This document shows, piece after piece, positions 26,041 through 61,270 of a stretch of 64,000 nucleotides of DNA; position 1 is the stretch's first letter; the number at the start of each line of letters is the position of its first letter. Under the pieces are notes generated by a model. It was given only the letters and a program-made list of their open reading frames with translations, did no database searches and was not told the origin of the DNA. The position numbers and the translations under genes were made by a program. Source of the stretch: Coriobacteriaceae bacterium (GTDB lineage Bacteria > Actinomycetota > Coriobacteriia > Coriobacteriales > UMGS124); the NCBI GenBank assembly GCA_019421015.1, contig JAHZGC010000002.1, positions 1,619 through 65,618 of the forward strand, read 5' to 3'.

Positions 26041-26074
26041 GGCGTCGATAGGCCGGGGTTGCAACCGGGGTTCC

Positions 26075-26221: not shown

Positions 26222-26254
26222 GGGCGGGTGGGGTGGAGAGGGGAGATACCCTAT

Positions 26255-27568: not shown

Positions 27569-27572
27569 TTGT

Positions 27573-27658: not shown

Positions 27659-27737
27659 CCCTTCGCGCGCCGTCCTTCTCGCCCACGAACTGCGCTACAC
27701 TGGGCAGCCACTCCAAAATAATCGGGAGGAGGCCCCC

Positions 27738-29642: not shown

Positions 29643-29841
29643 AGGACGCGTTCAGGGTAAAATCACCCACAGCCAAAAGGGGCGGTTTCGCGCGTGCGCG
29701 CCGACGTAGCGGAGGATTTGGGCTACGCCGAACCTGGCGATTTGGTCGTCGCCGCGACGAGCGAGCACGTCGAGGACGTTTGCAAGGCGGTCGATATCAA
29801 GAAGTCTATGCTCGAGAAGATGTTTGTTTAGGAGGGCGGGA

Positions 29842-30402
29842 ATGGAAAAGCTGATTCTGTTTCACGGTGCTCCTGACAAAGTCGTAGTGCCAACATACGG
29901 TAGGGGCGAAGAAAAGCACGACTACGGCCGTGGTTTCTACCTTACCGGAAGCCTAGACCTTGCGAAGGAATGGGCAGTTTGCAGGCCTAGTTAAGTGAAC
30001 GGCTGGGTTCATAAATATGAACTTGATACCAGTGATCTTAAAATCTTGGATTTTCAAAACGAGGGCGTTCTTCCTTGGCTTGCCGAGTTGATGAAGCATA
30101 GGGATGCGGCGGACTCCAAACGCTATCGCGTGCTCGCAAAGAAGTTTATCGATAAGTATGGCGTGGACACTGCCGGATTCGATGTCATCAAGGGCTGGCG
30201 GGCGAATGCCTCCTATTTTTATATTGCCAGGGAATTCGTGCGGGACAATATCGACATGGACATTCTCGAAGAATTACTTTCTTTGGGAGATTTAGGCATC
30301 CAGTACTGCATTAAATCAGAGCTTGCGTACTCCAAGCTCCATGAGCTCGAAAGCGATTTGCAGGCTGTGCCCTACGAAGAGTTTAACGAGAGGTATAACT
30401 AG
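29842..30402 (+). pseudogene. DUF3990-like (putative ADP-ribosyltransferase-fold) gene with in-frame TAA at codon 51
   Basis: MEKLILFHGAP...HDYGRGFYLTGSLDLAKEWAVCRPS-TAA(29992-29994)-VNGWVHKYELD... The same frame continues to 30402. GGAGGG SD before ATG 29842. Confidence 0.7.
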
Positions 30403-30494
30403 AGAGACGTTATTGCCAGGCGAAAGATGTGCGAACTTGTTGACTCCGACGCTAACCGTGTGACAAGGGTGTTCAGCACGCTATTTGAGGAGCG

Positions 30495-30920
30495 ATGACC
30501 ATGGGGGCATATGCACAAGACTATCTAAACGATGTGGTCGAAAATCAAGGTAAGCTCTTTGATATCATCGCTCAAACCCACCCCGAGGCCGACACCGAGG
30601 ATTTCATCAAGGCCTATATGGCAAGCAAGACGAGAAAAGGCATCGATGAGGGAAAAGCCTACGTTAATACCATGAGCGCCAAAGAGCTGTGGGCCTACTT
30701 TACCGAAACGGAAGGATATTCCCTGAAGCCCGGCAAGGCGCTTGATGGCTTTATGCCCGACTGGATTGGGGAGTTCTATGCCTACTATCAGTGGTATTAC
30801 GATATCCCAAGCAGCGAAGTGCTGAAAGAGGTGCCGCTTGAGTTTTTAAAGAAGGCCTACTGCGGCTTGCATGACCTAGAGCTTGACCTAGCGGTGCAAA
30901 AGGTCGGCGGAGCGAAATGA
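30495..30920 (+). CDS. Hypothetical protein; C-terminal half resembles DUF3791
   Basis: 141-aa ORF in the lower-GC island. GAGGAG SD (the start may be the second ATG at 30501). The tail ...AYCGLHDLELDLAVQKV resembles the Y-x2-LH end of DUF3791 proteins, which usually accompany DUF3990. Confidence 0.5.
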   Translation: MTMGAYAQDYLNDVVENQGKLFDIIAQTHPEADTEDFIKAYMASKTRKGIDEGKAYVNTMSAKELWAYFTETEGYSLKPGKALDGFMPDWIGEFYAYYQWYYDIPSSEVLKEVPLEFLKKAYCGLHDLELDLAVQKVGGAK

Positions 30921-31390
30921 GCATCGTCTGCTTTCATAATCCCGATGAAGACAACGGCTTCATGAGCAACTGGTATCTCTCGCGATTCGTTGTGGATGAC
31001 ATCGCGTTCTCTTCGGTGGAACAGTTCATGATGTACCGAAAGGCGGTCTGTTTCTGCGATGAACCTGCGGCGGAGCAGATACTCGCCACAGACGATGTGG
31101 CTCGGATTAAGACGCTCGGAAGGCTTGTGTCAAACTACGATGAGGGCCTTTGGAACGGTGTTCGGCAAATCGTTGTCTACGAGGGACTTCTGGCGAAGTT
31201 CTCGCAAAACGATGATTTAAGAGGGCGACTAAAGGCAACTGGCGATTCGGTGCTGGCGGAATGTGCTGTACAAGACAAGATTTGGGGTACTGGCCTGTCG
31301 ATGAAAGATCCCAATAGGTTTGATCAATCCAAATGGAAAGGCCAGAATTTGCTTGGGTATACCCTGATGATGGTGCGAGCTGCTACATAG
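30917..31390 (+). CDS. NADAR (YbiA/DUF1768) family protein
   Basis: GFMSNWYLSRFVVDDIAFSSVEQFMMYRKA...KIWGTGLS...GQNLLGYTLMMVR matches the NADAR pattern (F-S-N-[FW]-Y ... E-[HQ]-x-[FM]-x-x-x-K ... W-G). Overlaps the previous gene by 4 nt. Confidence 0.8.
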   Translation: MSIVCFHNPDEDNGFMSNWYLSRFVVDDIAFSSVEQFMMYRKAVCFCDEPAAEQILATDDVARIKTLGRLVSNYDEGLWNGVRQIVVYEGLLAKFSQNDDLRGRLKATGDSVLAECAVQDKIWGTGLSMKDPNRFDQSKWKGQNLLGYTLMMVRAAT

Positions 31391-31521
31391 AGCGTCTTGA
31401 GAACGCCTATGAGGATATTGACGGTCTGGTTGCGACCGGTAGGTATGCTTGGTGATACAAACGACGGCTCTTTGTGCCGCAATATATGCTGGCGGTCGGC
31501 TCTTCAGGGTAGTGCAATTGT

Positions 31522-31841
31522 ATGCAGATGTTCAAGGACCGTCAGGGCGACTTCTGGAAGAGCTGCACGGGCAACCTCAACTTCGGTGCCGCCGAGGGCG
31601 ACGGCATCAAGGCATGCCTGTGGGCCGGCGCATCACCAACGAGTCGATGGACGGCATCGTCACCGATGACGAGTACCGCGCGCTGACCCCCGAGGGAGAG
31701 GTCATCGAGGGCCTTTACGTGACCGGCAACGACTGCGGCTGCAACCACCTCGACAGCTATCCCAACCAGGGCGCCGGCACCTGCTGCGGCCGCAGCGCCG
31801 TAAACGGCATGCTCGTGGGCAAGGCTCTCGCCGCGAAGTAA
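31522..31841 (+). pseudogene. Flavoprotein reductase remnant (two non-contiguous pieces fused out of frame)
   Basis: ...NFGAAEGDGIKACLWAGA (a mid-protein motif) shifts frame near 31625 into ...GIVTDDEYRALTPEGEVIEGLYVTGNDCG...GRSAVNGMLVGKALAAK (the C-terminus). Confidence 0.6.
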
Positions 31842-31869
31842 GAGGCGCGGTTAAGGCCAAGACGCAAGA

Positions 31870-31916
31870 GGGCGCGGCCCCGGGGCAACTGCCTTCTGGG
31901 GTCGCGCCCGTTTTTT
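31870..31916 (+). terminator. Intrinsic terminator
   Basis: GGGCGCGGCCCCGG ... CTGGGGTCGCGCCC stem followed by GTTTTTTGG. Confidence 0.55.
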
Positions 31917-31967
31917 GGAGCGCGTGAGACTGAGGTCCTCTGCTGGCCGTTCTTCGCCGGTTCGCCC

Positions 31968-33416
31968 TTAACGCCGCACGTATCGGTAGGACTTGCCGAT
32001 TCGTACGTGCTCCAACTCCCCGGCTTCCTCTAGGCCCTTGAGGCGTTTTTGGGCGGCACGGACGCTTAGCCCAAAGCGCTGGTTCAGGAGCGCGGCCGTT
32101 ATAAAGCCGGCTTCGTTGCATGCTTCCAGGATAGTTGCGTTGTCGATGGGCTTAGTTGTCGCATGTTTTGCCGGAATAGCTTGCAGCGGGAGCTCCATGC
32201 GCACCTCAGCGGGGGCATGGGTCTCAAGAAGCAGGGGCTCCTGCCAGTCCATGGAGCGCCAGGTGGTAAAAATCTTGCAGATCCCGCTGCCGGCCCGATC
32301 GATAACCCCTACCTGCCCAAAGATTCTCATAAGGGTGGGGTTGCGCGGCTCAGAGAGGCCGCCTTCTATGGCGACTGCGCGGTCGACCAGGAACGACCCC
32401 GAATTCGTGACGGTCAGCCGGTCGGGATGCAGCACGACGCGCACGGTGCTGCTGCTTCCGTAGTAGGCGTGTACCAGCGCGTTGGCCATCGCTTCGTGTA
32501 CAGAGTCTTTGACGTCGTTTGACGATACGTGGCGCATGCCGGATGTGTCGACCTTAAAAGGCGTTGCGAGCGCGCGGTCGATGCGGTTGGCGACTGTGAA
32601 GTAGAAATCGACCAGGTTTCCGCTCCAATCGCCGCTGGTGGATACCACGCGGTCGTCCCAGCGGAGCTCCCCCGATGTTTCCTGGCGGTAGTCCAGCAGG
32701 AAGTGTGGAAAGAGCGCTGTGATGTCGTATTCGTTTCCAAAGGCTAGCAGCCCGGCTCTGGTGGGGCGCAGAAGACCGTCGGCATCCTTGGCTGCCGCGC
32801 CGATGTGGTAAAGAAAATCGGCGTCGGTGTCGGATCGCCAGGGATGCGTGGGCTTGTCGGCGGCAAACAGGGCGCGATAGGACGAGATTGTTTGGGAATT
32901 AAGGGAGTCGAGCGAAAGCTCGCGCAACGGCTGGCGATCGGCCGCGGGAATCGCGTCGTACTCCATGAGCCGGATATCGTCCTGACCGCATTGGATATCC
33001 GAGCTGCCGCGGCGTACGAACGCCACGAGAGCTTTCGCTCGACGGTTCCACACGGTAACCGGCCTGTCGGATCGTTCGGCACGTGGTACCGTAATGATAA
33101 CGACCGTGCTGTCGTTAATTTTGACCGAACGCACGCCGTCTGGCAGCATGACATCGCGGGAGACTTTGGACGGGTTGCGCACAACATCCCAGAAGGCTTT
33201 GATGAGGGTATCCGCGTCGGGCACCCCTTGAATCGTAAAGACGGACGGCCGCCCCTCCTGTGCCTCTTCACGAACGCCAAGGACGATTTCGCCGCCTTCG
33301 GTATTCGCGAACGCCGAATAGGTCTCCCAGATGTCCTCGGGGAGTCCGGCGAAGGCCTCTTTAAACTCTAGTTTTTGGTGCTCATGGAGGTTGTTGAGCT
33401 CGTTCATGAATGCCAT
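31968..33416 (-). CDS. AlbA_2 (Schlafen-like) / HATPase_c_4 putative DNA-binding protein ('RecG-like' regulator family)
   Basis: N-terminal HEHQKLEFKEAF...FANTEGGEIVLGV (AlbA_2). RNPTLMRIFGQVGVIDRAGSGICKI motif. C-terminal winged-helix-like tail. ATG 33416 after AAGAGG (the ORF track uses GTG 33422). Confidence 0.75.
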   Translation of the reverse strand: MAFMNELNNLHEHQKLEFKEAFAGLPEDIWETYSAFANTEGGEIVLGVREEAQEGRPSVFTIQGVPDADTLIKAFWDVVRNPSKVSRDVMLPDGVRSVKINDSTVVIITVPRAERSDRPVTVWNRRAKALVAFVRRGSSDIQCGQDDIRLMEYDAIPAADRQPLRELSLDSLNSQTISSYRALFAADKPTHPWRSDTDADFLYHIGAAAKDADGLLRPTRAGLLAFGNEYDITALFPHFLLDYRQETSGELRWDDRVVSTSGDWSGNLVDFYFTVANRIDRALATPFKVDTSGMRHVSSNDVKDSVHEAMANALVHAYYGSSSTVRVVLHPDRLTVTNSGSFLVDRAVAIEGGLSEPRNPTLMRIFGQVGVIDRAGSGICKIFTTWRSMDWQEPLLLETHAPAEVRMELPLQAIPAKHATTKPIDNATILEACNEAGFITAALLNQRFGLSVRAAQKRLKGLEEAGELEHVRIGKSYRYVRR

Positions 33417-33526
33417 GGGCACCTCTTCTTTGCCGGTCGGTTGTCTCCCATAATACGCCCGATTATGGCTGGCTATGGCGGTACTGCCCGGGATATCGAC
33501 GTTCTCTATGAGCGTGTTTGCGCCCT

Positions 33527-33646
33527 GTTCGCGAACGGTTCGCGCACGGCTGCCCTGTTCGCGAACGGTTCGCGCACGGACGCCCGGTTCGCGAACGGTT
33601 CGCGCACGGACGCCCGGTTCGCGAACGGTTCGCGAACGGACGCCTA
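33527..33646. repeat. 30-bp tandem repeat x4 containing palindrome GTTCGCGAAC
   Basis: Units start at 33527, 33557, 33587 and 33617. Each unit reads GTTCGCGAACGGTTCGCG[C/A]ACGG.... The last unit overlaps the PFOR stop codon. Confidence 0.9.
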
Positions 33647-37662: not shown

Positions 37663-37782
37663 TGGCAAGAAATTCGAGATATCAGGATGTTTTACATGCT
37701 TGGAGGGCCTCTGTCATCCTGATATCTTGCATTTTTTGCCAATGGGGCCGGAAAACTTCCTGATTTATCGCAATTCTTGCCA
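37663..37782. repeat. Phased motif array, family 2, locus F (1 direct + 2 inverted)
   Basis: TGGCAAGAAATTCGAGATATCAGGA at 37663. Inverted TCCTGA...TTGCCA units start at 37717 and 37758 (41 bp apart). Confidence 0.8.
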
Positions 37783-37860: not shown

Positions 37861-38072
37861 TGACACCAAACTGGCGTTCTGTAAGTGGAATCGACCTGTG
37901 TTGGCACCGAATACGAGTTTTGTAAGCAGGGTCGGGGGCTTATCGCCCAAAATCGAGGGCCCGGGCTTACAGAACGCCGGTTTGGTGCCACTTTCCGCTC
38001 GACGGGCTTACAAAACTCGCATCCGGTGCCAACGCGCGCCCCGCGCCCTTACAAAACTCGCATTTGGTGCCG
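37861..38072. repeat. Phased motif array, family 1, locus D (2 direct + 3 inverted)
   Basis: Direct units start at 37861 and 37902. Inverted units start at 37966, 38007 and 38048. 41/64-bp geometry. Confidence 0.9.
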
Positions 38073-38174: not shown

Positions 38175-39446
38175 CTACCCCACAACCCCCTTCTCCCGCA
38201 GCTCGTCCACCTGCGCCTCCGTGTACCCCAGCTCGCTCAGCATGCGTGCGGTGTCGGCCCCCAGCGCCGGTGCCGGCCCAATGGTCGGCTGCCAGCCCGA
38301 GAACAGAATCGGGCATCCTACCAGCTTGAACGTCCCGCGCGCGCCGCCCTGGTCCACGCTTGCGATAAGTCCGGCCTGTGCCAGTTCGTCGTCGGCCGCA
38401 AGCTCGGCCCAGCTCAGCACCGGCCCGCAGGGCACGCCGGCCGCCCCGAGCGCCTTCGTCACCTCGTACTTGTCGCGCGTGATCGTGTATTTCTCCGCGG
38501 CGGCGTAGATATCGCGCTTGTGTTCGAAGCGGGCCTCGGGGGTGTTGTAGCGCGGGTCGGTCTTCCAGCTCTCGAGCCCCAGCGCGTCGCAGAACTCCTC
38601 GAACCCCTTGCCCGCCCGCTGCACCACCACGTACACGTAGGCGTTGGGGTCGGTCTCCCAGCCCTTGCACCGGTAGCACCACCCCAGCTCGCCGCCGCCC
38701 TCGGCGTTGGCCACGCGGGGCACGGCCCGCCCCTGCTTCTGGTAGGGGTAGTTGGGGTATTCGGGCAGGTAGCCCTTGGCGTCGAGGAACGCCTGGTCGT
38801 GCATGCGCACGCGCCCCAGGTTGAGCACCGCGTTTTGCATGGACTGCTCCACGTGGCAGCCATCGCCGGTGCGGGAGCGCTGCTGCAGGGCGGCAAGCAA
38901 CCCAATGAGCAGGTGCATGCCGGCGTTCACGTCGCCCAGCGACGAGCCCGAGAGCAGCGGCGCGTCGTTGGGCCCCATGTTCCAGCCGGTGTTCGAGGCG
39001 GCTCCGCCCATGCACTGGGCCAGCGCGTCGAAGGCCTCGGCCGGCTGATAGCGGTAACCGGGGTTCGTGCAGCTCAACGACCCCATGATGAGCCGCGGGT
39101 TCAGGGTGTGCACGCTGTCCCATGCCAGCCCCAGACCCTCGAGGGCCGCAGGGCCGCGGTCTTCCACAAAGAGGTCGGCCTGGGCGAGAAGGTCGCGCAG
39201 GATGCGCGCGCCATCGGGGGAGGCCAGGTCCACCGCGATTGAGCGCTTGTTGGTGTTGAGCTGCACAAATCCCAGGCTGTCGGTATCGGGGACGTCCTGC
39301 AGGCAACGGCGTTCGGGATCGCCTGTGCCAAGCGGTTCCACCTTAACAACGCTTGCGCCGAGCCATGCAAGCATTTGTGTGCAAGAGGGACCTGCGATGC
39401 CTTGCGTTATATCTATTACGTGCAGATATTCCAACGGAGCAACCAT
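38175..39446 (-). CDS. frc: Formyl-CoA:oxalate CoA-transferase (family III CoA-transferase)
   Basis: Similar along its length to the Oxalobacter Frc sequence as I recall it (VIDITQGIAGPSCTQMLAWLGA..., GWCYRCKGWETDPNAYVYV, VPCGPVLS). Adjacent to oxc. Confidence 0.85.
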   Translation of the reverse strand: MVAPLEYLHVIDITQGIAGPSCTQMLAWLGASVVKVEPLGTGDPERRCLQDVPDTDSLGFVQLNTNKRSIAVDLASPDGARILRDLLAQADLFVEDRGPAALEGLGLAWDSVHTLNPRLIMGSLSCTNPGYRYQPAEAFDALAQCMGGAASNTGWNMGPNDAPLLSGSSLGDVNAGMHLLIGLLAALQQRSRTGDGCHVEQSMQNAVLNLGRVRMHDQAFLDAKGYLPEYPNYPYQKQGRAVPRVANAEGGGELGWCYRCKGWETDPNAYVYVVVQRAGKGFEEFCDALGLESWKTDPRYNTPEARFEHKRDIYAAAEKYTITRDKYEVTKALGAAGVPCGPVLSWAELAADDELAQAGLIASVDQGGARGTFKLVGCPILFSGWQPTIGPAPALGADTARMLSELGYTEAQVDELREKGVVG

Positions 39447-39621
39447 TTTTTATAACCCTTCCGATTGTACCAGAACCAATAGTGAATAAAACATCTTAGA
39501 GGTGCTAAAACAGTCTTATCAGTGTGTGATTATTACCATTAGATATGCCAAAGTTTCTAGAAAATGACGGGAAAGGGAACAGGTCTTACACGTTCATTCG
39601 TTACGTGTTTGGAGGCTGTTT

Positions 39622-41409
39622 ATGGCTACGACTGTTCCCGCCGCCGCAACGGCGGTTCCCGCCGCTTCCGCCACGGCGCCTGCGGCCAACCTCACCGACG
39701 GCATGCACATGCTGGTAGAGGCCCTGCTCACCAATGGGCTCAATAAGATGTACGGCGTGATCGGCATTCCCGTGACCGACGTCGCCCGTATCGGTCAGGG
39801 CGAGGGCATCCGCTACATCGGCATGCGCCACGAGGCCGACGCGGGCAACGCCGCTGCGGCAGCCGGCTTCATCACCGGCAAGCCCGGCGTGTTCATCACC
39901 GTCTCGGCCCCCGGCTTCCTAAATGGCCTGCCCCCGCTGAAGGAGGCCACCGAGAACGGCTGGCCCGTGATCATGATCTCGGGCTCCAGCGACCGCCAGC
40001 TCATCGACATGGGCGAGGGCGACTACGAGGGCCTGGACCAGTACAACTTTGCCAAGCCGTTCTGCAAGGCGGCCTACCGCATCGACAAGCCCGAGGACAT
40101 CGCCCTGGGCGTGGCCCGCGCCATCCGTGCCGCCCTGTCGGGCCGTCCCGGCGGCGTGTACCTCGACGTTCCTGGCGAGCTGCTGGGCGCCACCATGGAC
40201 CTCGACACGGCCAAGGCGACCATCTACGCGGTGAACGAGCCTGCCCCCGCCATGGTTCCCTCCCAGACGTCGGTCGACGCGGCCCTCAAGCTGCTGGCCG
40301 AGGCCAAGAATCCGCTGATCTACCTGGGCAAGGGCGCCGCCTACGCCCAGTGCGATCAGGAGATCCAGGACTTCGTGCACCAGACGGGCATCCCCTACCT
40401 GGCCATGTCGATGGCCAAGGGCCTCATCCCCGACACCGACCCCCAGAACGCCGCCTCGGCCCGCGGCCTCGCCATGCGCACGGCCGACGTGGTGATGCTG
40501 GTGGGCGCGCGCCTCAACTGGATGCTCAACTTCGGCAAGGGCAAGCACTGGAACGAGAACGTCAAGTTCATCCAGATCGACATCGACCCCACCGAGATCG
40601 ACAACTCCCGCAAGATCGACGCCCCCATCGTGGGCGACATCAAGAGCGCCATGGCCATGCTGCTCAAGGGCCTCAAGACCACGCCGATCAAGGTCGACCC
40701 CGCCTGGCCGCAACTGCTCGACGCCGACAAGCAGAAGAACGACGCCAAGTTCGCCGGCAAGACCTCCGAGGTCACCGAGCCGCTCAACCACTTCAACGCC
40801 CTGGGCGCCATCAAGAAGGTCATCGACCAGCACCCCGAGGTCTACATCACCAACGACGGCGCCAACGCGCTCGATGACTGCCGCGACATCATAAACATGG
40901 CCCTCCCGCGCCACCGCCTTGACTGCGGCACCTGGGGCGTCATGGGTGTGGCGACCCCCTACGCCATCGGCGCCGCCGTGGAGACCGGCCAGCCCGTGGT
41001 GGCCATCAGCGGCGACTGCGCCTTTGGCTTTGCCGGCATGGAGATCGAGACCATCACCCGCTTCAACCTGCCCGTGACCCAGATTGTGCTCAACAACGGC
41101 GGCATCTACCGCGGCGACTTCGAGAACCTGGGCACCGACGGCGACCCCTCGCCGCTGACCCTCACCGCCACCGGCCGCTACGAGAAGATTATGGAGGCCT
41201 TTGGCGGCGCGTCCTACTACTGCACCACGCCCCAGGAGATCGAGACCGCCCTTACCGAGGCCATCGCCTCCAAGAAGCCGGCCATGATCAACGTGCAGCT
41301 GAGCATCCACTCGGGCAAGGAGAGCGGCCACATCAGCTACCTGAACCCGCAGCCTGTGCGCGGGCCGTTGGCCACCAGCGAGATGGAAGATCTCACTAAG
41401 ACCATCTAG
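39622..41409 (+). CDS. oxc: Oxalyl-CoA decarboxylase (TPP-dependent)
   Basis: GGAGG SD. TDGMHMLVEALLTNGLNKMYGVIGIPVTD...; TPP-binding GDCAFGFAGMEIETITRFNLPV...LNNGGIY. ~595 aa, divergent from frc. Confidence 0.9.
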   Translation: MATTVPAAATAVPAASATAPAANLTDGMHMLVEALLTNGLNKMYGVIGIPVTDVARIGQGEGIRYIGMRHEADAGNAAAAAGFITGKPGVFITVSAPGFLNGLPPLKEATENGWPVIMISGSSDRQLIDMGEGDYEGLDQYNFAKPFCKAAYRIDKPEDIALGVARAIRAALSGRPGGVYLDVPGELLGATMDLDTAKATIYAVNEPAPAMVPSQTSVDAALKLLAEAKNPLIYLGKGAAYAQCDQEIQDFVHQTGIPYLAMSMAKGLIPDTDPQNAASARGLAMRTADVVMLVGARLNWMLNFGKGKHWNENVKFIQIDIDPTEIDNSRKIDAPIVGDIKSAMAMLLKGLKTTPIKVDPAWPQLLDADKQKNDAKFAGKTSEVTEPLNHFNALGAIKKVIDQHPEVYITNDGANALDDCRDIINMALPRHRLDCGTWGVMGVATPYAIGAAVETGQPVVAISGDCAFGFAGMEIETITRFNLPVTQIVLNNGGIYRGDFENLGTDGDPSPLTLTATGRYEKIMEAFGGASYYCTTPQEIETALTEAIASKKPAMINVQLSIHSGKESGHISYLNPQPVRGPLATSEMEDLTKTI

Positions 41410-41454
41410 CCCGTTAGTACGGTGGCGGAACCCCGCTCGCCGCGTTTTTACTCG

Positions 41455-41496
41455 CGCGGCGGAGAAGCCCCCGATTCCCAGGTCTTCTCCGCTGCG
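41455..41496 (+). terminator. Hairpin after oxc (stem GCGGAGAAG/CTTCTCCGC)
   Basis: GCGGAGAAG at 41459-41467 pairs with CTTCTCCGC at 41484-41492. No U-run. Confidence 0.45.
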
Positions 41497-41535
41497 AAAA
41501 GCCTCTGATCACCGATCCCCCTGGAAGGTCGGACC

Positions 41536-42708
41536 ATGGAAAAAATCTTGATACAGGACATATTGCCGATCCTGGTGATCATGATTCTCGGCTACATCTG
41601 CGGCAAGTTCAGCTACTTCGACGACGACCAGCGCCAGGGCCTCAACAAGGTCGTGCTGAACATCGCCCTGCCCGCCGCTCTGTTCGTCTCGATCGTCAAG
41701 GCAACGCGCGAGATGCTGTTCAGCGACCTGACCCTCACGATCCTCTCGGTCGTGGGCGTGGTGGGCATGTTCATGCTCAGCTACTGGCTGTGCCGCAAGC
41801 TGTTCCACCACAGCATGCAGGAGGCCGCCGTCTGCGCCCTGATCGCCGGCTCGCCGACCATCGGGTTCCTTGGTTTTGCCGTGCTCGACCCCATCTACGG
41901 CGACTCCGTCGACACCAACCTGGTCATCGCCATCGTGGCCATCGTGGTGAACGCCATTACGATTCCCATCGGCATGTACCTCATCAACCGCGGCCAGGCC
42001 AAGGATCTTGAGAAGGCCGCCAAGGCCGTCTCGAACAACACGCTGGCCGCCGAGGCCGTCCCTGCCGCCGCCGTTGCGGCCGGCACCGTGGCGGCTGGCA
42101 CCACCGCCAGCGGGGGCGCCGCGGGGACCAAGGCCCTCATGACCGAGCACGAGGCCAAGAAGGCCGGCAACAAGGACGCCGAGCTCCTGGTGGCCGACGG
42201 CTCCAAGAACGGTCAGGCCGCCAAGACCAGCAAGAACTCGAACGCCCTGGTCAGCGCCTTGAAGCAGCCGGTCTGCTGGGCGCCTATCCTCGCCGTGGTG
42301 TTCGTGCTCGTGGGCATTCGCGTGCCCGACCCGCTCGACCCCTGCTTCGACCTGATCGCCAAGGCCAACTCGGGCCTGGCCGTGCTCGCCGCCGGCCTGG
42401 CGCTCTCGACCGTGAAGTTCAGCCTCGACAAAGAGGTGCTGTGGAACACCTTCTTCCGCCTGATCCTGACCCCCGCCGTGTTCCTGGTGGCCGGCATCTT
42501 GTGCGGTATGGCAAGCGACCCCAGCAAGCTCGGCATGCTCATCATGGCTGTGGCCCTGCCGCCGGCGTTCTCGGGCATCATCATCTCGAGCCGCTATAAC
42601 ATCTACGTGCGCGAGGGTGCGAGCTCTGTGGCCGTCTCGACCGTGGGCTTTGCCGCGACCGTGATTCTGTGGGTCTGGCTCGTGCCCGTGGTGGCGCACA
42701 TGTTCTAA
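41536..42708 (+). CDS. AEC (auxin-efflux-carrier) family transporter
   Basis: GGAAGG SD. N-terminus MEKILIQDILPILVIMILGYICGK. Two 5-TM halves separated by a long Ala/Gly/Lys-rich loop. Confidence 0.8.
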   Translation: MEKILIQDILPILVIMILGYICGKFSYFDDDQRQGLNKVVLNIALPAALFVSIVKATREMLFSDLTLTILSVVGVVGMFMLSYWLCRKLFHHSMQEAAVCALIAGSPTIGFLGFAVLDPIYGDSVDTNLVIAIVAIVVNAITIPIGMYLINRGQAKDLEKAAKAVSNNTLAAEAVPAAAVAAGTVAAGTTASGGAAGTKALMTEHEAKKAGNKDAELLVADGSKNGQAAKTSKNSNALVSALKQPVCWAPILAVVFVLVGIRVPDPLDPCFDLIAKANSGLAVLAAGLALSTVKFSLDKEVLWNTFFRLILTPAVFLVAGILCGMASDPSKLGMLIMAVALPPAFSGIIISSRYNIYVREGASSVAVSTVGFAATVILWVWLVPVVAHMF

Positions 42709-43032
42709 GGGTTGCGCGCGGGTAATAACGGCCGTGCGATAACGGCTGCGCGGACAGCTGGTGCGACGCGCTTGCCAAACGGTTCCGTCGCCTGGGGGAG
42801 AAACCCCTGGGCGGCGGGACCGCTTGCGTGGGGGAGAAGGGCTGGCGGGTGGGGGCCCGCTGTTGGGATGGGTTTGCGGCCGGATGTGGTCTTTGGGGTG
42901 GGGGGCGCCCGCAACGGGGGACGCCCAGAGCGGGGGACGCCCAACATTACCTATGGGGCGTTGACGCGGGCGCCACGGGAGGGGGTGCGATATGCATCAT
43001 ACATTGAATATTTAACTGTTTTGAACGCAATT

Positions 43033-43254
43033 ACACCCGCGAAAAGGGGGTTCGTGTACCGCGTAACATCTCCGTTTTTTACGCAAAGGGGAGCAAAGGG
43101 GTCGTTGGCGCCATCCCAATGATGGTCGAACGGGGAGCCGCAATTCCGGGTAACACTCTGACCAGGGGTTTTGCCATGGCGTGATTGCACGGCCTTCAGT
43201 CGGGCGGTCAATATCAAACACTGCACGGTACACGAACCCCCGTTGTGCGGGTGT
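43033..43254. repeat. 29-bp inverted-repeat pair enclosing 164 bp, upstream of gene 43326-44171
   Basis: ACACCCGCGAAAAGGGGGTTCGTGTACCG at 43033-43061 and CGGTACACGAACCCCCGTTGTGCGGGTGT at 43226-43254. 26/29 identical to the arm at 7515-7543. Confidence 0.8.
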
Positions 43255-43325
43255 ATTCCCTGTGGCCGTATTTCGCTTCTCGAGAAGATGGTCGTGGCCA
43301 AAGAGGAGATTCCGGAGCTGTAACC

Positions 43326-44171
43326 ATGAAGACAACAACTGCGCATCGTGTGGCCGCTTTAACCGGTTCGGCGCTCATGCTGGCCGGGATGGGCGCGGGA
43401 GGGGGTTTTGCCTCTGCGGGCGAGGCCCCGGCCACCGTTTCCCAAGAGGGCGTGTTTCAGAAGGTTGCTGCCGATAAGGGCGCTGTGGCCAAGGCCCCAG
43501 CCGTCGCCAGAACGTTTGCCTACAGCCAGGGTGCGCCTGCTTCCATCGACACGATCGCCCGGGTCATGGGCACACCTCGATACGCCCGCAGCTCCACCTA
43601 TGCGGGTGCCCCGCAGAGCCTCAACGCCCTGGACTGGACCATCGAGGTGGGTGGCGCCGTAGAAAACGAGTTTGTCGCCACGGTGGGCGATCTGGTAGAG
43701 AACGGACCCATGAACATCGTCATGGGTTGCAGCTGTGCGAGCAACCCGGCCAACGGCGTGGCCTCCGCGGACACCGACGTGAGCGGTGTCATGTTTCGCT
43801 CCATCGTCGATGCGGCCAACCCTGACGCTGGGGTAAACACTGTGGTCTTCACCTCGGCGGACGGCTACGAGGTGGCGCTTCCCCTGCGCTATTTGGACCA
43901 GCGCTACTCCCTCATCGGGTTCGACGTTAACGGCCAGCCGCTGAGCGATTCCATGGGCGGCTCCAACCAGCTTTGGCTCTCGGGCACCTCGGCCAACAAC
44001 CACGCTTTGTGCGGTTGGTCGGCCCCACAATCTCCCCCTGGGTCGCGGGGCCGAGGACGCTTGCCCGCCATGGCAAGAAACCACGGAAATCAGGATGCCG
44101 GCCGGGTCTTACGGCAGGAAATCAAACTAATCAGGATGTTCGGGGGTTTACGGTGGCAGAAAATGGCATAA
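43326..44171 (+). CDS. Secreted molybdopterin-oxidoreductase-domain-like protein (Oxidored_molyb/YedY-like); 3' end uncertain
   Basis: Signal peptide MKTTTAHRVAALTGSALMLAGMGAGGGFASA. WTIEVGG...FVATVGDL...MGCSCASN...VVFTSADGYEVALPL...FDVNGQPL...GGSNQLWL pattern. The last ~45 codons run into repeat array G. Confidence 0.55.
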   Translation: MKTTTAHRVAALTGSALMLAGMGAGGGFASAGEAPATVSQEGVFQKVAADKGAVAKAPAVARTFAYSQGAPASIDTIARVMGTPRYARSSTYAGAPQSLNALDWTIEVGGAVENEFVATVGDLVENGPMNIVMGCSCASNPANGVASADTDVSGVMFRSIVDAANPDAGVNTVVFTSADGYEVALPLRYLDQRYSLIGFDVNGQPLSDSMGGSNQLWLSGTSANNHALCGWSAPQSPPGSRGRGRLPAMARNHGNQDAGRVLRQEIKLIRMFGGLRWQKMA

Positions 44172-44293
44172 AACCTCGTAAATCAGGAAATTTACCAGGC
44201 ATTTGGACTGGTCGGCTACCATCGGGTTCCTGATTTCTCATGTCTCTTGCCGTTCGGTACCTTGGGCATCCTGATTTCCCGGACTTTTTGCCA
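44071..44293. repeat. Phased motif array, family 2, locus G (3 direct + 2 inverted)
   Basis: Direct units start at 44071, 44112 and 44164. Inverted units start at 44228 and 44269. Steps are 41, 52, 64 and 41 bp. Confidence 0.85.
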
Positions 44294-44355
44294 TATGGTC
44301 TCCGCGACTCGGGTAGTATGGAGCCATCCCCCCCGTCCGTGAACTAAGCGACCGC

Positions 44356-44608
44356 TGGCACGAAACTGGAGTTATGCAAGGGGGCAGAGCGTCCACTGGT
44401 ACCGAATGCGAGTTTTGTAAGGGTGCCCGGAGCCATCTGGCACCAAATCGGAGATATGAAAGGGCTCGCGGACAAAAACCGGTATCGTGCGTGCTCCCGG
44501 ACTTACAAAACTCGCGTCTTGTGCTATCTCCGCGCCTCTTGGCTTACAGAACCCGCATTCGGTGTCACCTCCCTCCCCGGGGGCTTACACAACTCGCGTC
44601 CGGTGCCA
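44356..44608. repeat. Phased motif array, family 1, locus E (3 degenerate direct + 3 inverted)
   Basis: Direct units start at 44356, 44397 and 44438. Inverted units start at 44502, 44543 and 44584. 41/64-bp geometry. Confidence 0.85.
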
Positions 44609-44887
44609 TCCTGCGTTCCCACCGCCCCGTGTCCCCATCCCTTCCCCTCAGCGCAAGAATTAACCCCGCCTTACTCTCCATGAATGCTACACAACTCCGA
44701 TTCCATAGCACTTTTAGACGGGCCGCCCTCAGTGTCAACGCCTGGTTACACAACCCTCAAAGGCGTCTAATAAACGCAGGTCAAGGGGGCTTTTCTGACA
44801 CCTGATAACCGTGCTTAAATACGGCTTGGGGGGTTACCGAACCACAAAGCAATACGTCAGCAAGACCTTTGGAGAGAGGGGATAGTT

Positions 44888-46399
44888 ATGTCTGACATCA
44901 CCACGACCCGTCGCGCGTTTGTGGGTGGCATGGCCGCTATGGGTGGCATGGCCGCGATGGCCGCCGCCGCTGCCAAGGCCGGTATCGCTGTGGCCGACGA
45001 GGCCGCCGCTGCCGATCCCGCTACCACCTACGAGCTCGAGGACCCGAGCGAGTACTGGGGCGAGGGCGTCGTTGCCCCCCACACCACCCGCGAGTCTGCC
45101 TACGAGAACGTCCTGCCCGAGCTGGCCGACGCCTCCATGTCCGAGCTCGTCGACATGGTCCAGGATACCCTGCCCCTCGACGAGATCGAGGACGCCGTCC
45201 TGCCCGACGGCACCACCGTGCCCGCCGTGTACGTCAAGCTGCGCAACCACATCAACCGCATCGGCTCCGGCATCGGCGGCACCCCGCTGCCCAACTCCTA
45301 CGAGATGATCATGTCTCTGTGGAGCGAGGAAGACGCCCAGCACGAGATCGAGATGCCCTACAACAAGTACTTCGACGCCAACGACTACCACTGGCTGAGC
45401 GGCCGTCCCGTCGAGGAGTGCACCGAGATCTGCGACGATCTGGCCTCCCGCGGCATGATCATGCGCGCCAATCACTCCGGCCACATCGTGTACCACCTGC
45501 TGCCCTACATCAACGGCTTCTGGGAGTTCAACGAGCTGCGCGCCTACTTCGAGAACGGCGGCGACCCCGACGGCGTGGCCGAGGCTCCCGAGGCCTACGC
45601 CGCCGCTGGCGCCTTTGACGCCCTGGGCATCGGCGGCGCCGAGCCCGGCTCGTCCTTCGAGGCCCTCGTGCCGCTGTTCCACACCTACCCCGTGAGCGCC
45701 GACGTCGTGGAGGAGGACGAGCTCGCCCCCTACATGGACTGGAAGGCCATCATCGAGGCCAACGAGAAGATCACCGTCTCCCCCTGCCAGTGCCGCCTCA
45801 TGTGGAAGTCCTTCGGCGCCCCCATGTGCCACGGCGACGGCGACCACCCCTTCGAGACCTGCCTGTCCTTCGGTGAGCTCGCCGAGTACTTCGACGAGAT
45901 CGGCATCGGCCGCTACATCAGCCAGGACGAGGCCATCGCCATGGTCGAGAAGTGCATGGACGCCGGCATGGTGCCCGAGTCCCTCAGCATGAAGGAAGTC
46001 GACATCATGTGCATGTGCCACGGCGACTGCTGCGGCAACCTGAGCGGCTACAAGGCCATGGGCGGCCAGGCCCACGCCAACGTGAACGTGAACGCCTACC
46101 TGCTCAAGTACGATCCCGAGAAGTGCATCAGCTGCGGTGCCTGCGCCGAGCGCTGCCCCATGGAGGCCATCAGCCTCAACGAGGACGGCATCTGCCTGCA
46201 CAACAACGCCTGCGTGCGTTGCGGCCAGTGCGTCACCGTGTGCCCGGCCGACGCCCGCATCCTCAGCTACCGCGGCGACTACCCCGAGCTCGGCCGCGAC
46301 TACGTCGAGGCCGTCGAGATGCTGTCCGCCGAGCGTATGCGCCGCGGCATGATCACCGACTTCGCCGGCGGCGAGGTCCAGGCCCCGGCCGAGGCGTAA
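44888..46399 (+). CDS. Tat-exported 4Fe-4S dicluster protein (paralog 3)
   Basis: Tat signal TRRAFVGGMAAMGG. SPCQCR and CMCHGDCC clusters. CISCGACAERCP and CVRCGQCVTVCP motifs. GGAGAGAGGGG SD. Confidence 0.8.
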   Translation: MSDITTTRRAFVGGMAAMGGMAAMAAAAAKAGIAVADEAAAADPATTYELEDPSEYWGEGVVAPHTTRESAYENVLPELADASMSELVDMVQDTLPLDEIEDAVLPDGTTVPAVYVKLRNHINRIGSGIGGTPLPNSYEMIMSLWSEEDAQHEIEMPYNKYFDANDYHWLSGRPVEECTEICDDLASRGMIMRANHSGHIVYHLLPYINGFWEFNELRAYFENGGDPDGVAEAPEAYAAAGAFDALGIGGAEPGSSFEALVPLFHTYPVSADVVEEDELAPYMDWKAIIEANEKITVSPCQCRLMWKSFGAPMCHGDGDHPFETCLSFGELAEYFDEIGIGRYISQDEAIAMVEKCMDAGMVPESLSMKEVDIMCMCHGDCCGNLSGYKAMGGQAHANVNVNAYLLKYDPEKCISCGACAERCPMEAISLNEDGICLHNNACVRCGQCVTVCPADARILSYRGDYPELGRDYVEAVEMLSAERMRRGMITDFAGGEVQAPAEA

Positions 46400-53341: not shown

Positions 53342-53565
53342 TGGCAGGAATCGGGACTTTGCGACTTTCCGGGTGGTCCGACTGGCGGAAATCCGAACTT
53401 TGCGACGTGGTTTTGGTGGTAGGGAAGAAGGGTGTGGAGGTCGGTGCGTCTCTCACCTGTGGTGATACTGATGCTAATAGTGGTGCTACCGTAAAAGCGA
53501 GTCGCATAGTTCGGATCCCTGCCATTCCCAACCCTGCTCAAGTCGCAAAGTTCCGATTTCTGCCG
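53342..53565. repeat. Phased motif array, family 3, locus H (2 direct + 2 inverted)
   Basis: TGGC[A/G]GGAA(A)TC[G/C]G[G/A]ACTTTGCGAC at 53342 and 53383. Inverted GTCGCA...CTGCC[A/G] at 53501 and 53542. 41-bp phasing within each arm. Confidence 0.8.
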
Positions 53566-55492: not shown

Positions 55493-55676
55493 AAGGGCTC
55501 ACGCGGAAGGCGACTGCCCGGTTTGGGCCATTGTTTCCGAAGCATGCAAACGCCCCGTCGCCTTCGCCGCGTCTCCGCCGGGTGTGAGGGGGGGCTTGGA
55601 CTGGGCTTGCCCGTTGCTCTCGATGTGTTTACAGAACCTGCTGTTCCACGAGCGCTAGCGCGGGATCATTGCGCGC

Positions 55677-55904
55677 ATGGGCGAGCTGCTCACCATGTAC
55701 GTGAGCCACGCGTTTCCGGGCGACGCCACGGCGACGGGCCCCTCGGCTCTGCAGTCCCTGTTCGAGCACGCCCGCAACCGCGGGTTCGACGTGGTGGGCG
55801 ACTACTACGAGGAGTCGGTCTGCCGCTGGCCCCAGGTGTTCGACGAACGCGGAGAGATCTTGGTGCACTGCCGCCTGCCGGTGCGGCAGGGGGAGCGGAG
55901 GTAG
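55677..55904 (+). CDS. Possible fragment of a GyrI-like/effector-binding-domain protein
   Basis: The 75-aa ORF ...YYEESVCRWPQVFDERGEILVHCRLPV resembles the C-terminal end of GyrI-like domains. An in-frame TAG lies just upstream. Confidence 0.3.
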   Translation: MGELLTMYVSHAFPGDATATGPSALQSLFEHARNRGFDVVGDYYEESVCRWPQVFDERGEILVHCRLPVRQGERR

Positions 55905-55939
55905 GGCGTCGCGGAGGCGCGCCGACTGCCCGTGGGCGC

Positions 55940-56182
55940 GGACAGAATCGCGACTTTCTTGGCCCATGGGGTCTTTCCGGCGGGTCTCTTGGACGGAACC
56001 TCGACTTTCTTGGCCGATTTTTCGGACGGCCTGGTGACCTGCGGGATAAAGCTGCTGGTAGATGACTCGCCCCCTCAGAAATCCTGACAAGGGGAGGTCC
56101 ATATCGGTCGAGAAAGTCCGCAATCTTGTCCGCCGGCGCCCCCTCAGGCACCGAATAGGTCGAGAAAGTCGAGGTTTTGTCC
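55940..56182. repeat. Phased motif array, family 4, locus I (2 direct + 2 inverted)
   Basis: GGAC[A/G]GAA[T/C]C[G/T]CGACTTTCTTGGCC at 55940 and 55991. Inverted GGTCGAGAAAGTC...TTGTCC at 56106 and 56158. 51-52-bp phasing. Confidence 0.8.
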
Positions 56183-56209
56183 ACAGGCTGGCCCCTAGCC
56201 GAAAACCCT

Positions 56210-56710
56210 TTATTCCACCTCGAGCAGGGTCTGCACCAGAGCGACCATCGTGTCCTTCTCCGTCGGTGCCGAAAGGGCAACCATAAGCGCTATGGCAGCC
56301 AGGGCGTTGGGTTCGACGGGCTGGCGCGCAGGGCTTAGCAACCCGTTGCGCTCCAAAAAGTACACGAACAGGGCGGCGGCGCAGCGCTTGTTTCCGTCGT
56401 AGAAGGGGTGGTCCTTGACCACCTGGTACAGCAGGTTCGCCGCCTTGGCCTCCAGCGACGGGTAGAGTTCGAACCCGGCGAACGACTGGTAGAGCCCCCG
56501 TACAATGCCCTCGAAGGAACCATCGCGTTCACGGCCGAAGAGATCCGAGGTCTCGTAGAACGGCAATTGCTGGATGAAGGCTCGGGCATCCTCGTAGGTC
56601 AGCTCCCAGGTGGCGGCCTGCCCCTTGGGTGCGATTACCTCGCCCTCGTCGTAGCGGGCCAGCAGCTCCAGGGCCGGAAGGTATTTGCGGATAAGGGCGG
56701 CCGTTCCCAT
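56210..56710 (-). CDS. Fic/Doc-family protein (death-on-curing type)
   Basis: HPFYDGNKRCAA matches the Fic/Doc motif HxFx(D/N)(G/A)NKR. The flanking ...ELYPSLEAKAANLLYQVVKD... is typical of Doc toxins. Confidence 0.75.
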   Translation of the reverse strand: MGTAALIRKYLPALELLARYDEGEVIAPKGQAATWELTYEDARAFIQQLPFYETSDLFGRERDGSFEGIVRGLYQSFAGFELYPSLEAKAANLLYQVVKDHPFYDGNKRCAAALFVYFLERNGLLSPARQPVEPNALAAIALMVALSAPTEKDTMVALVQTLLEVE

Positions 56711-56818
56711 GGATGTCCTTTCGTGCAGGGATGCTGGGTCTCAGGGTAGCACGGATATGGAGCGTGAAGGACAAGGTGGGAGAGGACCCTGTCATTTGCC
56801 TGCAGTCTGCCGGTTGCC

Positions 56819-57027
56819 TGCCAGAAAAAGCAGCTTTATTTGGCAAGAGGGCTCTTCGGGAAAGGCCATGCCAGATAAACCTACTTTATTTGGTAGGCCA
56901 TCTGCCTGCGGAAATAATGAAAAACAGCTGGTAGATGGACCTGTTTTTGTTTGCCAAATAAACCAGCTTTGTTTGGCGGCACTCCCTTGGAGAAGGGCTT
57001 CTGCCAGAAAAGCCTACTTTATTTGGC
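56819..57027. repeat. Phased motif array, family 5, locus J (four quasi-palindromic 26-27-bp units)
   Basis: TGCCAGAAAAAGCAGCTTTATTTGGCA-type units start at 56819, 56869, 56952 and 57002 (50-bp steps within pairs). Confidence 0.8.
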
Positions 57028-57206
57028 AGTCTCCACCTCGCTCGGCAGTCCCAGCCCCGCTTGGCCGCCCCCGGTCTGCCTTCCACCCGCCTCCCCCCAC
57101 CGCGAGTTCCTCCCCCGTGCCCTCCACGTCGCTCGGGTACTATACCTTGCACAACTACCGTACCTCCGGCCCCGCGCTTCTATCCTCCCGAAAGGTTTCC
57201 GCCCCC

Positions 57207-60169: not shown

Positions 60170-61270
60170 ATGGATACGATCATCTGCCTCGAGTCGGCAC
60201 TCGAGATGTATCATGCGGCGCGCATCGTCGACGACCAACGGGGCTCGTCGGATCCTGCCGTGCGGTTATCGGCGCTTTCGCTTAAGCGTTTGAACTGCGG
60301 CAATGTGGGCAGTCGCGCCCCCTCGCCCCAAGATGTCGACCTGCTCTTGCGCCAGTTCGGCCGGTTCTCGGACGCTTGCCTCAAGGAGGGGCCGTGCCCC
60401 GTTGTGGGGTTGACGCCGCCGGTGCACGTTTTGGTTCCCCACGACGTCCCGCGGTGGCAGACCGATCGCCGCGTTTCGCACCGCGCGCCAGCCCGGGTGC
60501 CCGACGGCTCCTTGGTTCGTTTTGAGGACGGCCTGCTTCTGAGCTCGCCCGAGTATCTTTTTCTCCAGGCCGCCATTCAGCTTGATGTGCTCGACCTCGT
60601 TTGGCTGGCCTGCGAACTGTGTTCTCTGTATACCATCCATCCCCGGTGCCGGGGTGCGCTGCTGCCCGCTCGGCCCCTTACCACGCCGCAGCGTCTCGTC
60701 GGCTATGTGGAGAAGGCCTGCGAGCTGGGAGCTTATGGGGCAAAGAAGGCCTTGCGCGCCGCAGGCTATGCGTTGGGACATGCCGCCTCTCGCCGCGAGG
60801 TTGCGTTGGCGCTGTTGGCGACGCTGCCCCGGTCGATGGGTGGGCGGGCGATCCCAAAGCCGCAGCTCAACTACGACATCAAGATCGACGGTCGGCTGGG
60901 GGCAATCCACAATTGGCGGTCGTTTGACGTCGACGCCTGCTGGCCCAACGAGAAGGTCGTGCTTGAGTACGACAGCGACACGCACCATCTGAAGGGTTGG
61001 CGCAGGGCGCGCGACAACGACAAGCGGGAGGCCCTGCGGACGATGGGCTACCGGGTGGTCGAGGTGTCGACGCAGCAGTTCGACTCCTTGGTGATGGTCG
61101 ACGATTCCCTGTTGCGCCTGTGCAACTATCTGGGCGTTCGCAACCGGGCCGGCGAGTCTCGCTACGATTGGCAGCAGCGGCGCTCTGACCTGCGGCGGCG
61201 TCTCTACCGGCTGGACGAGCGGGGGATCGAGTGGTCGCCCACGGGCAGGCGCCGCTCCGGTTCTGCGTAG
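60170..61270 (+). CDS. Hypothetical protein with C-terminal DUF559 (Vsr-like endonuclease fold) region
   Basis: C-terminal ...FDVDACWPNEKVVLEYDSDTHH...RDNDKREALRTMGYRVVEVS matches the DUF559 pattern. No clear SD. Confidence 0.6.
   Translation: MDTIICLESALEMYHAARIVDDQRGSSDPAVRLSALSLKRLNCGNVGSRAPSPQDVDLLLRQFGRFSDACLKEGPCPVVGLTPPVHVLVPHDVPRWQTDRRVSHRAPARVPDGSLVRFEDGLLLSSPEYLFLQAAIQLDVLDLVWLACELCSLYTIHPRCRGALLPARPLTTPQRLVGYVEKACELGAYGAKKALRAAGYALGHAASRREVALALLATLPRSMGGRAIPKPQLNYDIKIDGRLGAIHNWRSFDVDACWPNEKVVLEYDSDTHHLKGWRRARDNDKREALRTMGYRVVEVSTQQFDSLVMVDDSLLRLCNYLGVRNRAGESRYDWQQRRSDLRRRLYRLDERGIEWSPTGRRRSGSA

Follow-up and report, generated by a model that had tools for sequence, protein, structure and literature searches.

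Reiterated transposase-binding sites, inverted between the two arms, are known from foldback-type transposons and from elements with multi-site ends (Mu, Tn7, Tn552 and IS21), in which the termini are TG...CA and the number of subrepeats varies. Phased sites with cooperative binding to a single face of the DNA, grouped into two clusters round a short core, are found in plasmid centromeres and iteron arrays such as parC of R1 and sopC of F. Here we describe an array with likenesses to both, at positions 44356-44608 of a 64,000-nucleotide stretch (hereafter the window) of contig JAHZGC010000002.1 (assembly GCA_019421015.1), from an uncultured gut member of the Eggerthellaceae. The array (locus E) consists of six 25-bp units, three direct and three inverted, and is one of five arrays (A to E) of a repeat family, F1, with the unit consensus TGGCACCnnAnnnGnGTTnTGTAAG. 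F1 arrays are like the foldback and multi-site elements in their arms and tips and like the centromeres in their layout, but they differ from each. In Mu, Tn7, Tn552 and IS21 the sites are irregularly spaced and flank a transposase-encoding body, whereas the body of an F1 array would be only 39 bp; foldback subrepeats are homogenised within an element, whereas the F1 spacers differ from one another; and centromeres have short, homogeneous repeats in direct orientation, found once in each replicon beside par genes, whereas F1 has five chromosomal copies in 30 kb, each with opposed arms. The finding is real and non-random, and the family is one for which no description was found in the literature that was searched for such repeats in the Eggerthellaceae.

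Array E is dyad-symmetric and about 253 bp long. Its start-to-start spacing, obtained by direct reading of 44100-44900 and with a repeat finder, is 41/41/64/41/41 bp, exactly as in the original prediction, which had also placed the six units and quoted their eroded bases correctly. When the whole window was searched with the F1 pattern TGGCACCNNANNCGAGTTNTGTAAG, allowing up to three mismatches, there were 30 matches against 0.02 expected by chance, and all 30 lie within the five arrays (Table 1); a scan of the window with a position weight matrix (PWM) found no solo F1 units outside them. Autocorrelation likewise has a sharp peak at a lag of 41 bp (83 windows of sequence, against none at lags 40 and 42). 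The spacing is invariant across the family, with 20 of 20 within-arm intervals at exactly 41 bp and five of five inner-to-inner intervals at exactly 64 bp. All five arrays are intergenic, as judged from gene calls based on GC content at third codon positions and from Pfam.

It had been claimed that geometry is retained at locus E despite sequence decay, and this is true throughout the family. Between the five F1 arrays there is no relation among the 16-bp spacers, whose pairwise identities are like those of a shuffled null apart from two pairs at 11/16, and about 515 bp of unconstrained filler, in 25 intervals, is without any indel. As 41 bp corresponds to 3.9 helical turns and 64 bp to 6.1, all sites lie on one side of the helix. 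Two sister families are built in a similar manner. F2 (25-bp unit TGGCAnnAAAnCnnnnAAATCAGGA) has direct and inverted sets on the same 41/64 plan and lies directly to the left of F1 at loci B (19707-19731), D and E; the 52-bp interval in F2 at E is due to a 10-bp duplication (TGGCAGAAAA/TGGCATAAAA) at 44154. F3 (unit TGGCAGGAATCnGnACTTTGCGACT), with two direct and two inverted units, occupies 53343-53565 (also 8666-8889 in the strain contig L004), in the divergent region between an SBP_bac_5/TAT gene and a DUF2779 gene; its units are 41 bp apart within arms, with 116 bp between the inner units. F1, F2 and F3 all open with TGGCA..AA, whereas their 3' halves are family-specific. The spacings in F2 and F3 that deviate from 41 and 64 bp are close to whole helical turns (Table 1), as are deviant spacings in the arrays of related species.

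The units also change more slowly than the sequence between them. Between the window and the orthologous F1 array of strain contig L005, there are 18 differences in 150 unit positions and 17 in 64 spacer positions (Fisher p=0.014), with five in the 39 bp of the centre, and pooling F1 with F2 gives p=0.007, all from this one well-diverged orthologous pair. At the eight variable positions of the unit, two units of one array resemble each other no more closely than two units of different arrays do. Randomised but indel-free filler, whole-turn quantisation in the sister families and slower units together indicate a constraint on binding positions and helical phase. The original prediction had left two explanations for the spacing, selection or inheritance from a single template. 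Selection, specifically on helical phase, is favoured by the unrelated spacers, the filler without indels and the whole-turn spacings elsewhere; simple inheritance from a template fits neither the unrelated spacers nor the equal likeness of units within and between arrays, and a recent common template for whole arrays is, on these comparisons, ruled out.

The erosion of locus E is modest, and the locus is a slightly decayed member of the family. When the PWM is derived solely from loci A-D, the units of A-D themselves reach 35.8 +/- 3.5 bits with a minimum of 26.4, and mismatches at strongly conserved positions number 8 in the six units of E against 21 in the 24 units of A-D; A and B each have an outer left unit as weak as the weak units of E. 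The left arm had been called degenerate, which fits two of its three units but not the near-consensus unit at 44397. Similarly, the right-arm units described as better preserved are so at 44543 and 44584, but the one at 44502 is, to a lesser extent, weak as well. Strain contig L005 keeps the consensus (TGTAAG, TGGCACC) at most of the positions that are decayed in the window; some of the decay is thus peculiar to the window strain. Two further F1 half-sites, at 44686 and 44745, are oriented like the right arm of E and are out of phase with it; they lie inside a strain-conserved, promoter-proximal region of an iron-sulphur (Fe-S) protein gene that starts at 44888. The interest lies in the F1 family as a whole rather than in locus E itself.

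Table 1. Units of array E, F1 arrays of the window, associated features and deviant spacings (scores from the A-D PWM)
Feature	Position	Strand	Description
F1 array A	14952-15245		4+3 units; 41/64 geometry as at E
F1 array B	19778-20030		3+3 units; one F2 unit at 19707 on its left
F1 array C	23753/23794-24046		4+3 units; fourth left unit with a 1-bp deletion; between convergent genes
F1 array D	37861-38072		2+3 units; F2 array 37663-37782 on its left
F1 array E	44356-44608		3+3 units; F2 array 44071-44293 adjoins
E, unit L3 (outer, left arm)	44356-44380	+	TGGCACGAAACTGGAGTTATGCAAG; weak, 25.8 bits
E, unit L2	44397-44421	+	TGGTACCGAATGCGAGTTTTGTAAG; one base off consensus, nearly perfect, 38.0 bits
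E, unit L1 (inner, left arm)	44438-44462	+	TGGCACCAAATCGGAGATATGAAAG; weak, 28.0 bits
E, centre (39 bp)	44463-44501	.	Asymmetric conserved motif; A5 tract near dyad
E, unit R1 (inner, right arm)	44502-44526	-	30.9 bits, below average
E, unit R2	44543-44567	-	35.6 bits
E, unit R3 (outer, right arm)	44584-44608	-	37.3 bits; 0 mismatches to search pattern
Two further degenerate F1 3'-half sites	44686-44754	-	GTTGTGTAGC at 44686, GTTGTGTAAC at 44745
F2 array at E	44071-44293	.	3 direct + 2 inverted units; spacing 41/52/64/41
Deviant spacing, F2 at E			52 bp, 4.95 turns
Deviant spacing, F2 at D			54 bp, 5.14 turns
Deviant spacings, F2 in strain L055			53 and 52 bp, 5.05 and 4.95 turns
Deviant spacing, F3			116 bp, 11.05 turns

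The gene context of the arrays is varied. Array A lies between genes for a Na/Pi cotransporter and a flavin adenine dinucleotide (FAD) reductase, array B between two genes for LuxR-type regulators, and array D between the genes for formyl-CoA transferase (frc) and pyruvate:ferredoxin oxidoreductase (PFOR), whereas array E is 280 bp upstream of the gene for the Fe-S protein (503 amino acids) and downstream of a degenerate molybdopterin-oxidoreductase open reading frame (ORF). Arrays A, B, C and D are all just downstream of stop codons. The best named relatives of the host's PFOR come from Adlercreutzia and Eggerthellaceae (64-66% identity), and contigs with identical proteins derive from human gut metagenomes. 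Between arrays D and E there is a module of the oxalate-degradation type (38175-42708; formyl-CoA transferase, a thiamine pyrophosphate enzyme resembling oxalyl-CoA decarboxylase, and a Mem_trans transporter), which is syntenic in relatives without arrays. On one side of array C lies a probable genomic island (24079-33600) with a GC content down to 49%, bordered on its other side by a 30-bp x4 tandem repeat (33521-33644); it contains a truncated FAD_binding_2 fragment (25570-26130), a DUF4143/AAA_14 ATPase, DUF3990 and NADAR proteins, and a Schlafen AlbA_2/HATPase_c_4 protein.

Every strain contig that extends across array A, B, D or E has that array at the same site, and the geometry of E is unchanged in its orthologues in L005, L007, L011 and L012. 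What varies is the number of units and the DNA alongside. Relative to the otherwise identical strain L054 (2640-2765), the window is without exactly 123 bp (3x41), equal to three F2 units at locus D (37687-37717); this difference is a unit-to-unit deletion, and copy number thus shifts by whole units. Strain L055 is 99% identical to the window over 8676-23680 and diverges exactly after a reductase stop codon (23681), beyond which an F2 array (spacing 41/53/52/41) and a LysR gene replace F1 array C, a 454-residue unknown protein and the low-GC island. Around locus E, a stretch of about 2 kb (42738-44700) that includes both arrays is 10-30% diverged from L005, whereas the flanking genes differ by 0-1%; it holds the degenerate Oxidored_molyb ORF (43185-44171) and a 95-bp indel (43849-43945), and it looks like a recombined or hypervariable island that would end about 30 bp to the right of the F1 array. 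Finally, the near-identical L064 (GCA_965643355.1) is without window positions 4575-10129, and in L063 and L064 an insertion sequence (IS) of the IS256 family stands in place of this 5.5-kb module, which comprises an Fe-S/flavin mononucleotide reductase (5347-7092) and a LuxR regulator (7878-9569). The strain comparisons thus portray arrays that are not visibly transposing, yet are sited at recombination-prone borders of variable segments. Many short-read metagenome contigs with the Fe-S gene (L003, L004, L006 and L008-L010) start 30-240 bp to the right of the F1 array (window 44641-44847), which points to assembly being broken by the arrays or by the hypervariable DNA that surrounds them.

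Within +/-10 kb of PFOR, no 41-bp arrays were seen in the two closest relatives, L058 and L059 (PFOR 81-83% identical), and the frc-PFOR neighbourhood is older than array D. However, analogous arrays, with direct and inverted units of about 25 bp, are present in L059 and in the divergent contig L003, at 32-33 bp and 62 bp. These lie at 8645-8860 and 10929-11060 in L059 and at 8527-8661 and 10130-10380 in L003, with spacings of 32-33, 36-39 and 62 bp and units that include TGGCGGATTGTCCTGGGATGTGTACGA, TGCCAAAACGCCCCCGCCGTGTACG, GTGTCAAAACGGGCGTCGCGTGTGCG and GATAAAGCAGGTTTTTCTGGCAC; the last of them (L003 10130-10380) adjoins an IS3-family IS. In L058, two identical 34-bp palindromes (8320-8353 and 9765-9798) stand on either side of a gene inserted between frc and PFOR (345 amino acids, with a weak match to REase_MTES_1575), and the homologue of this gene in the window encodes 366 amino acids (60170-61270). 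The exact two-unit pattern gave a single chance match in 185,579 species genomes and a single real instance in metagenomes, contig L002 (OGPW01002286.1, 10566-11081).

The motif at the centre of E, on the minus strand at 44472-44492 (ACGCACGATACCGGTTTTTGT; consensus GCGCA-N4-GCCGGTTTTTGC), recurs in B and C and has the reversed orientation in E, whereas the centres of A and D have diverged; it is weakly palindromic, conserved in three of the five F1 arrays and not conserved at all in F2. At the end of contig L002 stand two F1 units with homology to the left arm of E, including its spacer (14/16); the subterminal end of the inner one is joined to a vWA (NorD-like) gene which is intact in L062 (8001-8630). 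The first 19 bp past the junction resemble the E centre (16/19, one gap). This junction could be a recombination product with a common core, by analogy with attP/attB, or it could be a chimera formed at microhomology, since just 91 bp of F1 sequence is present, at the end of a contig. An insertion into the vWA gene, which is truncated in L002, was rejected because that gene is native and is intact in L062, and because the junction is at the subterminal end of a unit.

The described elements that the F1 unit most resembles are the ends of IS256-family elements. In these, the terminal inverted repeats (TIRs) are bipartite, with a helix-turn-helix contacting bp 7-11 and a DNA-binding N-terminal domain contacting bp 14-25; 26 bp are sufficient, and a subterminal TGTAAA is a conserved feature of the family (structural study of ISCth4; PMC7780238). 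The F1 unit is bipartite too, with conserved blocks at bp 1-7 (TGGCACC) and bp 14-25 (G.GTT.TGTAAG); it opens with TG and has TGTAAG or TGTAAA at bp 20-25, and both in its bipartite layout and in its subterminal TGTAAA-type motif it is like the TIRs, of about 24-41 bp, of the miniature inverted-repeat transposable elements (MITEs) of the IS256 family. An IS of this family is present in the same species, in L064 (NCBIfam transpos_IS256, 213 bits); its 29-bp TIRs, GGGTTTG-N9-CTGTGTAAGTCCT, have TGTAAG at bp 20-25, in the same register as the F1 unit. Given the bipartite blocks, the hexamer and inverted copies whose tips point outwards, the F1 units have the architecture of IS256-type transposon ends. 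We favour, with a probability of about 0.4, the reading that these are phased, one-face arrays of binding sites of the insertion-sequence-end type, probably relics of a foldback-like transposon that are immobile but still constrained by binding.

On this reading, locus E would be one copy of an array for a sequence-specific DNA-binding protein of the insertion-sequence-transposase type. Two to four units per arm, tips outwards and all facing one side of the helix, with an A/T tract near the dyad, would be bound cooperatively on one face by several protomers, which may then bring the arms together in a folded nucleoprotein complex like a transpososome. The arrays would have begun as the ends of foldback-type (MITE-like) transposons and would no longer move, in line with their randomised spacers and missing target duplications, although binding positions and helical phase would have remained under constraint. 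If they have a function at present, it may be as fixed protein-loading sites and as places where units readily recombine with one another, alongside gene modules that vary between strains.

Several observations weigh against this reading. The likeness to IS256 does not go beyond the architecture, the GG at bp 2-3 and the hexamer TGTAAG: the full F1 PWM scores the TIRs of the L064 element, the only IS256-family IS that was seen, at -16 and -11 bits, and families F2, F3 and F6 are without TGTAA. Tips with TG are found more typically in IS3, IS21 and Mu than in IS256. Unlike the single TIR of an IS256-family end, F1 has three to four TIR-like copies per arm at a fixed 41-bp phase, and its array copies have no common internal sequence, unlike ordinary MITE families. 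Neither 8-9-bp nor other consistent target-site duplications were present at the outer and nested unit pairs of the five arrays; the one flanking repeat, of 5 bp (CGAGC) at array D, is consistent with chance, and the idea that the 16-bp spacers arose by nested insertion was rejected because the 8-bp duplications that it predicts are absent. No cognate transposase or full-length element with F1 ends was found among the contigs covered. TG tips and several sites per end, which F1 has, are also features of Mu/Tn7/IS21-type ends, where a target duplication of 5 bp (or 4-8 bp) and neighbouring transposase/ATPase genes are expected; protein scans found no rve or AAA+ transposition genes adjacent to any array. 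Among strains, no whole array shows presence/absence polymorphism. In L002 the arm abuts foreign DNA at its subterminal end rather than at its tip, which, if real, conflicts with outward tips. Finally, conservation of the units in situ would fit equally well a regulatory or architectural protein of the host that has no connection with transposition.

Such a host protein (a global regulator, an insulator or a nucleoid-organising factor) could bind cooperatively to one face of sites spaced by four turns and so fold intergenic DNA, with paralogues reading F1, F2 and F3. This is the main rival reading, which we regard as possible but somewhat doubtful. It would account for the slower units and indel-free spacing, and for families that share a 5' half (TGGCA..AAA) and have their own 3' halves. 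Most of the arrays are upstream of genes (for the Na/Pi transporter, LuxR, PFOR and Fe-S protein), extra half-sites lie in the conserved promoter region of the Fe-S gene, and LuxR-type regulators form, in this lineage, a large family of paralogues with undescribed operators (PMC9734109). However, array C and the F2 array of L055 are between convergent genes, where there is no promoter, and one family is found at functionally unrelated genes. The two closest relatives have no arrays in their orthologous intergenic DNA, and an asymmetric unit of 25 bp and 34 bits is far bigger than the usual operator half-site. Local LuxR operators, more specifically, were rejected as the divergent LuxR-reductase promoter regions have different inverted repeats of their own and no F1 units. 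A sigma-54 promoter (TGGCAC-N5-TTGC) was rejected as well: the TGC after TGGCACC comes two bases early, the 10-bp GG/GC spacing is not kept, and the phylum is wrong, the host belonging to the Actinomycetota, which to our knowledge are without sigma-54.

The conserved centre raises the question of an attP-like recombination site, in which a core with opposed arm-type sites would allow a tyrosine recombinase to insert, excise or invert the modules between arrays. With their length of about 250 bp and inverted, phased sets of accessory sites round an asymmetric centre with an A/T tract, whose orientation in B and C is the opposite of that in E, the arrays do resemble phage attP-type sites; they bracket the two-gene reductase plus LuxR modules and the oxalate module, strain differences begin beside them, and L002 joins an E-like arm to an unrelated gene exactly at the boundary between unit and centre. 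We nevertheless consider this quite unlikely. There is no recombinase or integrase gene near any array in the window, the 25-bp units are evenly phased and many complete sites stand on one chromosome, unlike attP, and the core is poorly conserved, with a weak palindrome. No arm-swapped or inverted variants were seen in the three to four strains available per locus, the breakpoint in L055 is at a stop codon rather than at the core, and the frc-PFOR neighbourhood predates array D, while the L002 junction may be the chimera considered above. A phage or plasmid origin was rejected for want of relevant similarity: megablast and blastn against phage and plasmid collections gave nothing relevant, and scans of viral contigs gave no F1 and only chance-level matches to F2. 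Highly unlikely, in our opinion, is a hairpin element like the repetitive extragenic palindromes (REP) and bacterial interspersed mosaic elements (BIME) of enterobacteria or NIME/dRS3 of Neisseria, whose arms would pair when transcribed or extruded as a cruciform, and which would stabilise or terminate upstream mRNAs. These too are interspersed intergenic clusters, found also between convergent genes, of several families with a short common 5' motif, with alternating or inverted units whose number varies between strains, and they are reported to be associated with IS insertions and rearrangements (PMC1525189). F1 and its sisters likewise are species-specific, vary in copy number and have IS elements nearby, four arrays lie just past stop codons, and the well-preserved arrays can form long hairpins (z=-8.0 for C and z=-4.85 for B). 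Hairpin potential, however, is automatic for any inverted repeat, and array E folds like shuffled sequence (z=-0.78). Single F1 units are not palindromic hairpins, and there is no in-register covariation between the arms (3.57/8 against 3.86/8 for opposite-arm units); with spacers that are not complementary, this argues that pairing is not the selected feature. Spacing quantised in helical turns matters for duplex DNA and not for RNA, and strict phasing with non-conserved spacers is not described for REP/BIME. No Rfam family reached its gathering score anywhere in the window, and a structured RNA was rejected on the same grounds of folding and covariation. Nor does the unit have the internal dyad of a REPIN (REP doublet forming a hairpin); no RAYT-type (REP-associated tyrosine transposase) gene was seen, and no Y1/HUH transposase was found among the scanned proteins. 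The alternation of conserved repeats with unrelated spacers of constant length, and the erosion of locus E, might lastly call to mind a clustered regularly interspaced short palindromic repeat (CRISPR)-like array or a neutrally decaying tandem or inverted duplication, either of which we find scarcely credible. Under neutral decay, units would be lost at the same rate as spacers and indels would appear, and neither is seen; a CRISPR array was rejected because the repeats differ by 10-25% (up to 8 of 25 positions), the spacers are only 16 bp (below about 21 bp), two to four repeats stand in each of two opposed arms at five places within 30 kb, and there are no cas genes among the genes scanned.

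The window contains a number of other repeats. A further family at 55940-56183, with units of about 28 bp (TGGACGGAACcTCGACTTTCTtGgCCGAT) in a 2+2 arrangement at 51-52-bp spacing, lies beside a Doc-toxin gene in a segment (55671-57187) that is missing from strain L004; a lone unit of this family at 4541-4569 abuts the L064 breakpoint (window 4575). Upstream of a reductase gene, a 34-nt inverted repeat (7510-7543 and 7719-7752, 91% complementary) surrounds an AT-rich segment of 175 bp, and inverted pairs of GGGGGTTCTGGATAGGC occur at two loci (9799-9973 and 13416-13592) with arms 117-141 bp apart. Perfect or near-perfect intergenic tandem repeats are present near LuxR and reductase genes at 9661-9715 (19 bp x2.8), 17855-17913 (25 bp x2.4) and 27573-27650 (23 bp x3.4).

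Whatever their origin, the arrays are an unusually clean natural case of selection on helical phase that is independent of sequence. Assembly breaks at their edges also appear to affect the quality of metagenome-assembled genomes in this lineage. A bolder suggestion, which we think rather unlikely, is that F1, F2 and F3, together with the analogous arrays of related species, form an undescribed system of the Eggerthellaceae that is maintained by selection, in which domesticated transposase-like (or other paralogous) proteins would assemble phased, one-face complexes at intergenic 'boundary' sites, partitioning the chromosome into reductase/regulator modules and promoting the exchange of modules between strains, by cassette-shuffling or insulation. 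Gut Eggerthellaceae metabolise drugs and dietary compounds through large, strain-variable sets of such reductase and regulator modules. As the arrays adjoin strain-specific segments, they would, if they are more than relics, be a plausible physical basis for this plasticity.

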